Shown here: one piece after another, positions 28,218 through 31,920 of the stretch
How positions within the stretch are numbered: position 1 is the stretch's first letter
How the letters are laid out: every line of letters begins with the position of its first letter
Assembly (NCBI GenBank): GCA_965207375.1
Contig: OZ242274.1
Coordinates: forward strand, 1,216,001 to 1,280,000
Origin: Nitrosopumilaceae archaeon
GTDB lineage: Archaea; Thermoproteota; Nitrososphaeria; Nitrososphaerales; Nitrosopumilaceae
Direction of reading: 5' to 3'
DNA: 64,000 nucleotides
Notes under the pieces: generated by a model
What the model saw: the letters and a program-made list of their open reading frames with translations, nothing else
Database searches by the model: none
Told to the model about the DNA's origin: nothing
Made by a program: the position numbers and the translations under genes

Positions 28218-28422
28218 CGATATTTGGATCTTTTTGGTATTGCTAGGTGTGAAAATTAGGGAAATTGGCTAATTACGAATCAACTCTATGGTAGGATCAA
28301 AGAGCTTTGGCATATCTTTGTATACCTTTTATCAAAATTATTTCAACCTTGATTTGGGAGACCTGAGTATGTACGTCCGTATTTATCAAATCCTTAATAG
28401 CAAATCTCAAAGCTATGGTGCA

Positions 28423-29925
28423 ATGGTACAAAAAACAAAACTGCTCATATTACCACTTGTTCTGACGCTGATATCAGTACCGTTAGCATTTGGACAAGAT
28501 ACATCAGATACCATGCAAGGTCTTGATGATGTAGAGTCTTATGTGATATCGCCACTAAAGCAATACAATGCAGGTGTACTAGCAGAACAAATTATCTGTG
28601 AAAATAACAAAACATTGATGCAGCGACCAAATTCAGAACCTGCATGTGTCTATGAGACATCTGTAGAAAAGCTAGAGATACGCGGATGGGTTGTACTGTA
28701 CACACAGGACACTGTTTCATTATCTCCGGAACGTGATACCTCGTATACAGTATCAGAATCATCGGATGTTACTTTTAGTGCACCGTGTCTTTTCTGTTCC
28801 ACCCTAGATCTGTCCAGTTTCCCAAAGATTGGTGAGATAGCTACTGCTACACTTCATGTACCTAGCAGTACGCATATCAGTATTCCAGAAGATTGGGGTA
28901 TGAATGTGTATTTTTATTCTACTGATCCTGATGCCGTAGAATTTCTAGATGTGGAACCGACAACAGTCATATCCAAAAACGATGGTTCTGTACAGGATAT
29001 CTATAGAATGCCATTTGTAACAGAAAGCAACAAACCTACAACATTCTCAATCCAGTTCAAGATTATAAAAACTGGTCAGTTTTCCATACACGGTGGAATT
29101 ACAGATAATGAATCAAATTTTGTTACTCTTTTGGTAACAGAAGATGGCACTGAGGAATTTGTTCCACAATATGCTCCTCCACCTGTTCTAACCGAACTGT
29201 ACGCCAAAGAAATCAAGGAATTGCGTGTCATAATTGACAAGAGAGGCGGCGTTGGACCTGAGATGATAAACGTTAGAGACAGTGAAATTCTGATGGATAT
29301 AATACGATTTGAGGGACTGTTAACTGAACAGGAAGCTGAAAAATATTTGTCATTTGTATTACTAAATACAGAGAGACTATACGGGGAAGAATCCCTTACA
29401 TGGCGTCAAGTAGAACAGATTCTCTTAACTGATGAATATCTTGCAGAATACATAGATCATAAAACACGTCAGGATAACCGACCACTACAGGTTCCTACAG
29501 TATACTATTCTGATTGGGGTGCAGACGGATGGAATGACGGCTATGACAGTACACTTGAGGACATTAGAAGATATCTAGCACAGGGCAACTATATGACGCA
29601 ATCCCAGATAGACCAATACATCAAGGATTATATCGCAGACGATTTCCTTGATGTCCAAAATTTTTCTTTTTCATTTTTGCCCAAGGCATATGCTGCAACT
29701 ACCATACATCTAAAGGGATGGATATTAGCAGATCCCTCATTTAGTGACAAGACCGATGACCGTATCAGTGGCATTGAAGTATGTGGGCAAAAAAAGATCC
29801 CAAATGGTTACATGACACTAAAAACCACGCGTAATATCCTTGCGTGTGATATTACTGATGAAAATGGTAAATTTGGTAAGTGTTTACGTCGTGAACACAT
29901 GATAACCACCCCTGCGCTGTACTAG
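28423..29925 (+). pseudogene. Large secreted/surface protein, 3'-truncated at the repeat + IS110 insertion
   Basis: Signal peptide MVQKTKLLILPLVLTLISVPLAFG; SPLKQ...C...PACV module. The frame runs into the repeat/IS left end after DITDENGKFG. Confidence 0.75.
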
Positions 29926-29929
29926 TGAT

Positions 29930-30040
29930 GAATCGACCCCTGATTAGGTATGGGCTACGCGCCCTTGGTCGTGAATGGGGCAATCCGAGCTGCTGTGTAA
30001 TTGGGCTACGCGCCCTGATAGATGTGTGCAGCTTCCGATC
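29930..30040 (+). ncRNA. Candidate bridge/seek RNA of the IS110 element
   Basis: Two stem-internal loop-hairpin units sharing tgggctacgcgccct. The loop strands match the target junction (gtcgtg, ttaggta) and the donor junction (atagatg, tgtgt). RNA boundaries are approximate. Confidence 0.78.
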
Positions 30041-30074
30041 CGTCAAAACATCCGTAAGGAGGTGAAAAGAAAGG

Positions 30075-31166
30075 ATGAAAACATACATTGGAATAGACAT
30101 TGGAAAGAAAAAGTGTGACGTATGCGTCATAAATGGTACAGGACGAGTACTTGAGACCTGTCAGTATATGAACACGGTAGCAGATGCTAAAAAGTTTGCA
30201 GAAACCATGGCACGAAAATACACGGGAAATAAAAAAACATGCAGTGCTGCATGTGAAACTACAGGCAACATGTGGAATGTTACCTATGCTAAATTTGAGG
30301 CAGCAGGTATACCAATCAAGCTTGCAAATACGTACAAGATGGCCATAATTGCCAAGACTGGTAAAAAGACAGACAAGGTGGATGCACAAAAGATAGCACA
30401 GGTATTACGAATGGATATGATTCCAGAATGTTATGTACCAAAACCGGACATACGAGGAATACGTGCAATGATACGACAGCATATCAAGATAGTACATGAT
30501 AGGACACGAGTGATAAACAGAGTACGCAGTCTTTTAGACAGACATGATGTCTCAATTGATACAGTACAAGTATATGCAGTAAAGACAATGCAGTATCTAG
30601 AGTCTGTATCTCTTGATGAAATACATGATGAAATAATTCTGCAGCAATATGTCCGACAGATCAGACATCTGACCGAAGAGTTGACCAAAATGAATGATTA
30701 CATAGAACAAGAGGCAGCAAACAACGAGTATGCCAAACTATTGACAAGCATGACAGGGATGGGAACATATACTTCATTGTTGCTAGCAGTCGAAATTGCA
30801 GACATTTCAAGATTTGATAATCCAAAGAAACTTGTTGCATGGGCAGGTCTGTGTCCTACCATACACCAGTCAGGAGATCAAAAATATCTTGGAAGGATGA
30901 AGAAACTAGACACCAACAGTATAGTGAATTGGGCAATGTGCGAGGCAGCAAATGTGGCAGTAACACATGACCCTAGGATGAAATCAATATACGAATCTGC
31001 AAAAAGGCGACATGCAGACAAGCATGCACTTGCAGTTGTTGTAGTTGCAAACAAGATGATAACAATATCATGGCACATTCTGAACACAAAGACACCATAT
31101 TCGTCACACAATACAAGATTGTATCAGCGCAAGCTTGCTAAATTGGAAAAGGCACGTCAGAAATGA
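30075..31166 (+). CDS. IS110-family DEDD recombinase/transposase
   Basis: YIGIDIGK, CETTG, KTDKVDA (DEDD); AWAGLCP..HQSG catalytic Ser; aggaggtg SD upstream. Confidence 0.96.
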   Translation: MKTYIGIDIGKKKCDVCVINGTGRVLETCQYMNTVADAKKFAETMARKYTGNKKTCSAACETTGNMWNVTYAKFEAAGIPIKLANTYKMAIIAKTGKKTDKVDAQKIAQVLRMDMIPECYVPKPDIRGIRAMIRQHIKIVHDRTRVINRVRSLLDRHDVSIDTVQVYAVKTMQYLESVSLDEIHDEIILQQYVRQIRHLTEELTKMNDYIEQEAANNEYAKLLTSMTGMGTYTSLLLAVEIADISRFDNPKKLVAWAGLCPTIHQSGDQKYLGRMKKLDTNSIVNWAMCEAANVAVTHDPRMKSIYESAKRRHADKHALAVVVVANKMITISWHILNTKTPYSSHNTRLYQRKLAKLEKARQK

Positions 31167-31920
31167 TTTGTACCTGTCAAATCCGGTATTAAGCTTGCTA
31201 GCGTTAGCTATAAATGATATACTAAATAATTAGGCACGGAACGGAAACGCAATAGGGATACATCAAGGTACGCGCCGGGGTGGTTAACATAGATGTCTAA
31301 AATTACCATAAATTCAAAACAACGTTAACAGATACATCTGTTTTCATGTGTGGTATCGTGGAGCAATGCCGGACTAAATTATCTAGAAGAGATGATAAAA
31401 TACCTCTAGATGGGTAAAAACGATGTTAACCCTTACTAAAATTTTAGTCACAACAAGTACAAAGCGATTAAGAACCATTTTCAGGCCCCTAATCACAATT
31501 ACCTTTGAGTAATCGACTATCATAGTATGTAATGTAATAATTGTAATTAAAAGTTATAATATTTTCAGGCATAAAAAATACATAAAATAGGATTTGAACC
31601 CACGAAACCCTACGGTAATCAATTGATAGTCGATCTATTTTGACTAGGTTCACAAATCCATGCAATGTTGAATCTAAAGGCATGTAATTTATTTCCAAAA
31701 GATTTTTGATTCTGGATTGAAAAGTTTGCAAATAAGCTTGATCAAAGACCATTGACAATAGGCAAGTCATGGGGAAAGATTACAACATATGCTTCACCAG
31801 AAACTGATCTTGTAGCAAATCTAACTAATCATCAATAGTTTTTCACATGTTTTTAAAAATTTCACACATATTTTTACTTTTTAAAAATTTTCAAATACTA
31901 GACCATATTATAAAAAAATC

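Follow-up and report, generated by a model that had tools for sequence, protein, structure and literature searches.

A 64,000-nucleotide stretch of DNA from a Nitrosopumilaceae archaeon (assembly GCA_965207375.1, contig OZ242274.1, positions 1,216,001 to 1,280,000 of the forward strand; hereafter the window) carries at positions 29894 to 31293 an IS110-family insertion sequence (IS) of 1,400 bp (1,402 bp with one TG counted). We consider it highly probable that this is an autonomous element that moves by bridge-RNA-guided recombination, with a putative bridge RNA of ~124 nt encoded upstream of a 363-amino-acid recombinase (all element features are on the + strand). A preliminary description of the window had proposed an IS110/IS1111-type element with an upstream two-loop bridge RNA; a covarying RNA structure, guide matching across 37 elements, retargeting and the existence of empty sites all bore this out, and the letters and coordinates that it gave for junctions, stems, loop strands and hairpins were correct against the sequence. 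The bridge-RNA reading is well supported by comparative evidence, in that anatomy, structural covariation, matching of guides to DNA, retargeting between sister copies and the comparison of empty with occupied sites were obtained directly here. Transcription of the RNA, its binding by the protein, a circular intermediate and catalysis are inferred from IS621, ISEc11 and ISEc21, relatives whose mechanism has been published (PMC11208160, PMC11208158, PMC11187229).

The region between the left end of the element and the start codon of the recombinase gene is 181 nt long and holds both loop units. A covariance model placed the bridge RNA gene at 29923 to 30046 (121.8 bits, the sole match in the window), beginning 29 nt from the left end of the element and upstream of the recombinase gene. 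A closing helix, P1, whose 5′ strand (29927 to 29935) pairs with 30036 to 30044, encloses both units. The target-binding unit (29937 to 29980) has an outer stem of cccc (29937 to 29940) and gggg (29977 to 29980) around an inner hairpin at 29952 to 29964, and the donor-binding unit (29988 to 30033) has an outer stem of agctgc (29988 to 29993) and gcagct (30028 to 30033) around an inner hairpin at 30003 to 30015. The two inner hairpins are identical (gggctacgcgccc) and lie within an identical 15-nt module. The duplicated module, which the preliminary description had listed as unusual, is present as stated, but it belongs to this lineage only: the two inner hairpins of relatives are often, not always, alike.

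When 301 genomes from the same order were searched with the protein, 17 of them (own genome counted) gave matches at E ≤ 1e-60, and a scan of one genome per species gave 137 confirmed relatives among 167 candidates, from which the best 80 were kept. Hosts of these best 80 are nearly all assigned to Nitrosopumilus, Nitrosopumilaceae or Nitrososphaerales, with a few Bathyarchaeia. Upstream regions of relatives at 33 to 56% protein identity aligned with the layout kept. A regular expression for twin hairpins returned almost no matches in relatives because the hairpin sequence varies, and alignment was used instead. RNAalifold recovered four helices from 20 relatives, with compensatory changes in 12 of 17 pairs, and a covariance model was built after adding P1 as a fifth helix. 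With this model, 96 of 100 sources, nearly all of them Nitrososphaerota, yielded 97 matches (the other four contain the C-terminal part of the gene alone), and wherever positions were compared the matched RNA immediately precedes the recombinase gene and lies on its strand. In the host genome it gave eight matches, namely the four full copies of the element, one divergent decayed copy and three remnants.

The covariance check that the preliminary description had proposed could be run on these relatives, and double changes were found in 23 of 26 pairs among 78 distinct rows of the model-fitted alignment (shuffled mean, 17.9). In the same alignment 91.2% of cells were paired, against 70.9% after shuffling, and the covariation score was 0.564 (0.192 shuffled; ≤0.106 with partners slid by one to three columns); none of 500 shuffles reached any of the observed measures of pairing or covariation. 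All nine pairs of P1 change on both sides among relatives, with 79.6% of cells paired, and the helices of the target unit (helices 2 and 3) are paired in 95 to 98% of cells with double changes in every pair; for those of the donor unit (helices 4 and 5) the figure is 97 to 98%. G-U-type cells number 98 against 47 of the A-C type, an excess that fits an RNA read from the + strand. The element and its relatives thus carry a conserved structured RNA gene beside the recombinase gene, as bridge RNA and seekRNA systems do. One of the relatives, a locus with a typical RNA (L098; CAZUIY010000068.1, 1,795 bp, a ~1.8-kb contig), comes from a bin labelled Gemmatimonadales, a placement that reflects either a binning error or a transfer.

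The ends of the element are sharply defined: similarity between full copies stops exactly at both of them, and contigs of public sequencing runs break at 29891 and 31295. The left junction reads tacgtcg-TG-aacacat (TG at 29892 to 29893) and the right junction aacataga-TG-tctaaaa (TG at 31294 to 31295). The best end-to-end inverted repeat (19 nt with mismatches, score 13) lies at 29899 to 29917 on the left, starting 5 nt inside the element (7 nt with the TG), and at 31272 to 31290 on the right, 3 nt from the end, which is the 7/3 spacing of the preliminary description. Its core comprises 12 nt with one mismatch, and outside it stand TG plus AACAC on the left and AGA on the right. The element matches DNA at 15 places of the host genome (G000; 4.30 Mb, four contigs, 37.5% G+C). 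Full-length copies account for four of these (100, 100, 98 and 98% identity), and the remaining matches are truncated or decayed, at least seven of them being truncated or deleted remnants. The four full copies are flanked by ttacgtcgTG and TGtctaa (window copy), ttacgtcgTG and TGcctag (L002), tcacgtcgTG and TGcctga (L003), and gatttgTG and TGcctaaa (L004), with the consensus (GTCG or TTTG)-TG on the left and TG-(C/T)CTA on the right. Every genome match lies on contig C1 (2.16 Mb), and the searched relatives of the host's family have genomes of ~1.1 to 2.7 Mb, against 4.30 Mb for the host.

Each strand of the two loops can be read against one of these flanks or ends. In loop 1, the 5′ strand (right-target guide, ttaggta, 29944 to 29950) is complementary to the top strand TG plus CCTAA, and the 3′ strand (left-target guide, 29968 to 29975) consists of GTCG and the TG core (gtcgtg, 29968 to 29973) followed by AA, the first two bases of the element. 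In loop 2, the 5′ strand (right-donor guide, tgtgt, 29994 to 29998) is complementary to element bases 2 to 6 (ACACA), and the 3′ strand (left-donor guide, atagatg, 30018 to 30024) is identical to the last five bases of the element plus TG. For relatives, ends were set without use of the guides, by requiring a bordering TG on each side together with the best inverted repeat at set offsets of 5 and 3 nt; an unconstrained inverted-repeat search had mis-set the ends of many loci and was replaced by this rule. Rows were kept with a repeat score of ≥7, 25 to 40 nt between left end and RNA, and a size of 1,200 to 1,600 bp. In total, 43 of 97 rows passed, of which 37 are distinct (six duplicates removed). 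A clade with L043, L054 and L099 to L107 stands outside these counts because its right end was not found; its left flanks match the guides by eye.

Over six variable positions in the 37 elements, the left-target guide matched its cognate flank at 4.73 positions on average and non-cognate flanks at 1.82 (≥5 of 6 in 23/37), the right-target guide at 4.30 and 1.95 (22/37), the right-donor guide at 4.65 and 2.86 (29/37), and the left-donor guide at 5.08 and 3.60 (36/37). None of 10,000 permutations reached the observed match for any of the four guides, in agreement with the earlier proposal that loop 1 reads the target and loop 2 the element ends. Sister elements that share loop 2 provide a second comparison: at 51 loop-1 positions where such sisters differ, both flanks agree with their own guide at 27, one flank at 22 and neither at 2. 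Likewise, L004 has TTTTTTGTG where the other three full copies have TTGGTCGTG, and it sits behind gatttgTG and not acgtcgTG. Loop 1 is therefore hypervariable and tracks the insertion site, as had been predicted from the window sequence, and loop 2 tracks the ends of the element. The loops with which bridge RNAs bind target and donor behave likewise (PMC11208160), and both relationships expected of a bridge RNA or seekRNA system, that of loop 1 with the target and that of loop 2 with the ends, are found here.

These results bear on an alternative that we judge unlikely, in which the product would mainly be a short target-seeking RNA made of loop 1 alone, like the seekRNAs of IS1111 elements, or the element would be transferred directly without a circle; its ends would then be recognized through the subterminal repeats and a flanking copy of the target, with loop 2 accessory. 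The IS1111-type ends and guide order fit this explanation, and so do published observations: the abundant RNA of IS1111 members is a seekRNA of 70 to 100 nt with two target matches, and their donor flanks had to match the target (PMC11187229), and a preprint reports a pathway using a truncated target-loop RNA for one IS110 element (10.1101/2025.10.25.684509). The guides of loop 2 are also short (5 nt, and 5 + 2 nt). However, loop-2 strands follow the element ends from lineage to lineage (AACACA with TGTGT(T), AATACA with GTATT, AAGGCA with GCCTT, ACTTTA with TAAAG), and ends in ATAGA or ATAGG pair off with ATAGATG or ATAGGTG guides. Both units moreover lie inside one covarying closing stem, which argues for a single RNA carrying both.

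Target sites themselves provide evidence of how the element inserts. The sequence GTAAGTGTTTACGTCG-TG-CCTAGATTTTGACC occurs unoccupied three times in the host genome, and in L002 this sequence is occupied, with a TG to either side of the element. A single TG in the empty site against TG on both sides of the occupied one means that insertion is precise and that the core is a single TG. The empty target given in the preliminary description was upheld in kind but not in letter: its form acgtcgTGtctaa is absent from the genome, and the similar ACGTCG-TG-CCTAG is unoccupied three times. The target sequence is the outer end of a ~1.55-kb repeat that encodes a 449-amino-acid protein with an IS66 transposase domain (DDE_Tnp_IS66, 1.1e-38) and at whose opposite end the terminus recurs in inverted form. 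Copies of this IS66-family element lie at G000:C1:1939807-1941153 (L144) and near C1:1824036 and C1:879856, with the target ~16 nt from the tip. The 18-nt left flank of the window copy (29876 to 29893; GTCG at 29888 to 29891, TG at 29892 to 29893) is the outer end of the IS66-family terminal repeat, and the same 18 nt begin three IS66-family copies with unoccupied sites. A host open reading frame of 545 amino acids (28288 to 29925, +) crosses this IS66-type terminus and stops inside the element; without the insertion it would end differently.

A second class of target is a ~100-bp repeat resembling a miniature inverted-repeat transposable element (MITE), which has the same termini as the IS66-family element, carries TTTCG-TG-CCTAAAATT inside and is present in at least six copies (G000:C1:563804, 1026400, 1580303, 552998, 1381598 and 2048628). 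The right flank of the window copy (31294 to 31335) consists of the TG core (31294 to 31295), the target tctaaa and the right part of such a MITE-like repeat, ending near 31335; many contigs with other left contexts join at 31293 to 31297 and leave at 31335 to 31337, the end of the MITE. [quoted passage not shown] Judged from these sequences, the natural targets are the terminal repeats of the IS66-family element and its miniature derivatives, and the element thus lives in the ends of another IS family.

The state of the copies raises the further possibility, which we regard as very unlikely, that the family is real but its copies in the host genome are immobile relics. One of the four full copies has an in-frame TAG, the truncated or deleted remnants number at least seven and include two (L005, L007) without the stretch between the hairpin modules, and the closing stem of the window copy contains one A-C mismatch where relatives have G-C. 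Against this, two full copies are 100% identical over 1,400 bp, the 363-codon frame is open in three of the four full copies, unoccupied matching targets remain in the genome, and the guide variant of L004 matches L004's own site. In the two remnants (L005, G000:C1:555716-556203; L007, C1:1740117-1740203), which have lost the sequence between the identical 15-nt modules, the right-target guide and the left-donor guide now form a single hybrid loop. One contig from another sample, run X4, has this 51-nt skip too (window positions 29950 to 30002).

The recombinase gene (30075 to 31166, 363 amino acids) is the only long open frame of the element and has matches in Pfam, NCBIfam and PDB. Its product contains an N-terminal DEDD_Tnp_IS110 domain (PF01548, 1.6e-27) and a C-terminal Transposase_20 domain (PF02371, 4.7e-21), and scores 223.8 bits against NCBIfam NF033542, “IS110 family RNA-guided transposase” (cut-off, 140). 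Its sole relatives of solved structure in PDB are the bridge recombinases ISCro4 (1.1e-15) and IS621 (5.1e-14). Alignment with 12 relatives shows D8, E61 and D100 to be invariant and D103 and S266 to be at least 90% conserved; these D, E, D and D residues and the serine of the SG motif, part of the sequence GLCPTIHQSG, align with the matching residues of ISCro4. Both domains, the catalytic D/E/D/D and S, and site-specific insertion without duplication beyond the core are as expected of the IS110 family. The closest protein matches outside the phylum are encoded on a Haloarcula plasmid (33.6% identity) and on alphaproteobacterial plasmids (27 to 30%) and are named just “IS110 family”. The RNA model gave a weak match upstream of the gene on the Haloarcula plasmid (22.7 bits, E = 1.5e-5) and another, also upstream, on a Bradyrhizobium plasmid (14.4 bits, E = 0.006); Ensifer and Klebsiella plasmids gave no match to the model. 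The Haloarcula and Bradyrhizobium matches are too weak to place the clade.

A GGAGGTG motif (30058 to 30064), a putative ribosome-binding site, precedes the start codon and is conserved in the upstream regions of nearly all relatives. In the minimum-energy fold, the left repeat (CCACCCC..., 29907 to 29917) pairs with 30054 to 30064, which includes this motif. If a transcript ran across the circle joint, this pairing could face competition from the right repeat. Complementarity between repeat and motif is restricted to lineages with CCACC in the repeat. That the upstream region instead acts as DNA (protein-binding sites or a cruciform) or as a leader controlling translation, with the flank and end matches as by-products, is extremely improbable: the predicted fold could mask translation and the evidence for the RNA comes from DNA comparison, but loop strands vary freely between sister copies while stems are kept, the G-U excess fits an RNA from the + strand, and loop variation tracks DNA outside the element, for which a leader or binding site offers no reason.

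Several points weigh against the bridge-RNA reading. Folding of the single sequence predicts both units, but the fold is no stabler than those of shuffled sequences (z = −0.58; 58 of 200 as stable), and a search of Rfam over 29500 to 31700 with E up to 10 gave no match to a bridge RNA, so that the case for the RNA rests on relatives and covariation; the window sequence alone is weak evidence for the RNA structure. The alignment behind the covariation statistics (A3) was fitted to the model structure, which favors that structure; the independent RNAalifold result agrees with it. None of the 14 public sequencing runs listed is recorded as RNA, and the contigs of the four that were compared with the element show no circle joint, a junction that contigs cannot reveal. 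Only part of the family entered the guide test, as 54 of 97 rows were left out (incomplete loci, decayed copies and lineages for which no right end was found), and kinship inflates the permutation tests; the donor guides, constant inside a lineage but different from one lineage to the next, are affected most, and the loop-2 test is inflated accordingly. The left- and right-target guides reach five of six positions in just the 23 and 22 elements counted above, and on the right flank some elements miss almost entirely (L036 and L049 match at 0/6, L125 and L133 at 1/6); in L125, L068, L113 and L118 the right-target match looks shifted by one base. In the window copy itself, the right-target guide pairs with TGtctaa using two wobbles, and the right-donor guide stops short of the core and of element base 1. 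Its flanks are chimeric, with an IS66-type terminus on the left and the right half of a MITE on the right, and an empty site of this composite IS66/MITE type is absent from the host genome. Such composite flanks may stem from recombination between two copies, with the flanks derived from different sites.

With these points taken into account, the bridge-RNA reading would work as follows, in analogy to the related systems. The ~124-nt RNA would fold into a closing stem holding two internal-loop units, and the recombinase would bind this RNA. Loop 1 would hold the target, its 5′ strand pairing with the top strand (TG plus CCTAA) and its 3′ strand with the bottom strand (GTCG plus TG). Loop 2 would hold the joint of a circular copy of the element, its 5′ strand pairing with element bases 2 to 6 and its 3′ strand with the last five bases plus TG. 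The DEDD/serine recombinase would keep both duplexes on the RNA and exchange strands at the TG, and the element would enter without any duplication other than that TG. The right non-coding end of the element is 127 nt long and has a TATAAAT at 31209 to 31215, within a conserved block (CTAGCGnTAGCT[AT]TAAA) that is common to 11 of 37 aligned right ends. This is a possible outward-facing archaeal promoter. The left end is too short to fit a promoter ahead of the RNA, and the right-end promoter could possibly serve RNA and gene only once a circle has formed.

In its ends and guide order the element resembles the IS1111 group (ISEc11, ISKpn4, ISPa11), whose members, too, have a DEDD recombinase with a GL-P----SG motif, 7/3 subterminal repeats, a complement to the top strand located 5′ of the match to the bottom strand, and site-specific insertion into repeated sequences (PMC11187229, PMC11208160). 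Subterminal repeats of the IS1111 group measure ~11 to 13 bp with 7 (or 6) and 3 bp beyond them, a pattern that the element shares, and each of its loops has a complement of the top strand as its 5′ strand and a copy of it as its 3′ strand, which is the IS1111 guide order. The 7/3 spacing, listed as unusual in the preliminary description, is in fact typical of the IS1111 family and, together with the guide order, forms its published pattern (PMC11187229). This likeness is one of ends and guide order. Unlike in the IS1111 group, where the RNA lies downstream of the gene in a long right non-coding end, the RNA is upstream here, 29 nt from the left end; the protein has 363 amino acids, against a stated 330 to 350, and the donor guides occupy a simple internal loop, unlike in many IS1111 orthologues, for which a multi-loop is reported (PMC11187229, PMC11208160).

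Like IS621 and ISCro4, on the other hand, the element has its RNA in the left end upstream of the gene, two internal loops with the target loop first and the donor loop second, one loop strand for each DNA strand, a dinucleotide core, and catalytic D, E, D, D and S residues that align. It differs from them in the order of strands within each loop, which is reversed (PMC11208160), in its long subterminal repeats (12 to 19 nt here and 9 to 25 nt in relatives, against 2 to 3 bp), in its core (TG against CT), in a closing stem that joins both units, and in a protein identity of about 23 to 25%. Its guides are also shorter than theirs: the target guides and the left-donor guide each have 5 nt plus the core, the right-donor guide 5 nt and no core. 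An upstream non-coding region is atypical for an IS1111-type element, in line with the preliminary description, but has already been noted: a few IS1111-type elements, ISMtsp17 among them, have an upstream non-coding region, their RNAs being undescribed in that source, and two diverged IS1111-type elements, one from Haloferax by name, have both non-coding regions (PMC11187229). The present element shares with ISMtsp17 the combination of IS1111-type features and an upstream non-coding region (PMC11187229). Nor is an archaeal host unusual, as had been supposed, a survey having counted 662 archaeal IS110 recombinases (10.1101/2024.06.21.599552).

One detail of the left-target guide could bear on the order of strand exchange. 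The 2-nt extension that follows its TG agrees with the element's first two bases in 32 of 37 elements and with those of the right target in 1 of 37; the extension takes two states only (AA and AC), and few independent events therefore lie behind the 32. By matching non-cognate DNA it resembles the handshake guides of IS621, which lie beside the top-strand guides, whereas the non-cognate match here lies beside the bottom-strand guide (PMC11208158). In the left-donor guide, the corresponding extension agrees with the target's first two bases in 10 of 37 elements and with those of the donor in 1 of 37; as base composition is T-rich, no conclusion is drawn from this. We tentatively raise the idea, which on balance we doubt, that the Nitrososphaerota clade represents a third architecture among bridge recombinases, intermediate between the IS110 and IS1111 groups. 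Such a type would join IS1111-type ends and guide order to a crossover point on the opposite side of the RNA gene, by which the RNA comes to lie in the left end; the extension of the left-target guide could be a bottom-strand handshake, in which case the order of strand exchange would be opposite to that of IS621; and a complete outward archaeal promoter in the right end would switch on RNA and recombinase only after circle formation.

The RNA-guided class of mechanism, archaeal IS110 hosts and the reversed guide order are thus already known; what this archaeal clade, which has retargeted itself repeatedly, adds is a little-studied arrangement in which a left-end RNA goes with ends and guide order of the IS1111 type. 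With the mechanism class being established, the value of the family is comparative, as at least 37 distinct elements from ammonia-oxidizing archaea, with readable guides, ends and flanks, form a natural data set. The family uncouples the position of the RNA gene from guide order and subterminal repeat length, traits that define the IS110/IS1111 split, and can therefore be used to test whether guide order, repeat length and the order of strand exchange are mechanistically linked. Its small size (a 124-nt RNA and a 363-amino-acid protein) and its many natural retargetings also make it reasonably suited to testing at the bench. A preprint (October 2026) catalogs 32,190 bridge RNAs with 86 covariance models from bacterial and archaeal data (10.64898/2026.10.21.760802) and may already contain the Nitrososphaerota clade. 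A literature search returned no paper on Nitrososphaerota bridge RNAs, nor any characterized system of this sort from ammonia-oxidizing archaea; the supplementary trees and tables of PMC11187229 and PMC11208160 may list archaeal members or this architecture.

The ecology of the element is also of interest, in that it inserts into the terminal repeats of another IS family of the same genome. ISEc21 inserts into transposase genes of the IS3 family (PMC11187229), and IS4321 and IS5075 reportedly into terminal repeats of Tn21-family transposons. The present element shares with all three the use of one defined position inside another mobile element, and it differs from them in its victim, which is an archaeal IS66-family element with its MITE-like derivatives. 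Two inverted arrays of ~25-nt tandem repeats (G000:C4:423486-423560, +, and about 425812-425861, −) each include TTTCGTGTCTAAA, a sequence similar to the element's target.

Some minor observations complete the survey. Two copies of a related element (L052 and L059, genome G038) are missing the first 8 nt (AACACATG) relative to their sister copy L036, so that the left flank directly abuts the subterminal repeat, behind TG; their loop-1 guides still match both flanks. Five weak Rfam matches within 29500 to 31700 are unrelated to bridge RNA, and a tRNA-like match among the Rfam results (31579 to 31663, −) scored 26.8 bits, below its gathering score of 29, with no tRNA found by ARAGORN. Finally, the host genome contains at least five more intact IS110-family genes (L022 to L027) at 25 to 32% identity and without a match to the RNA model, which probably belong to other subfamilies with RNAs of their own.

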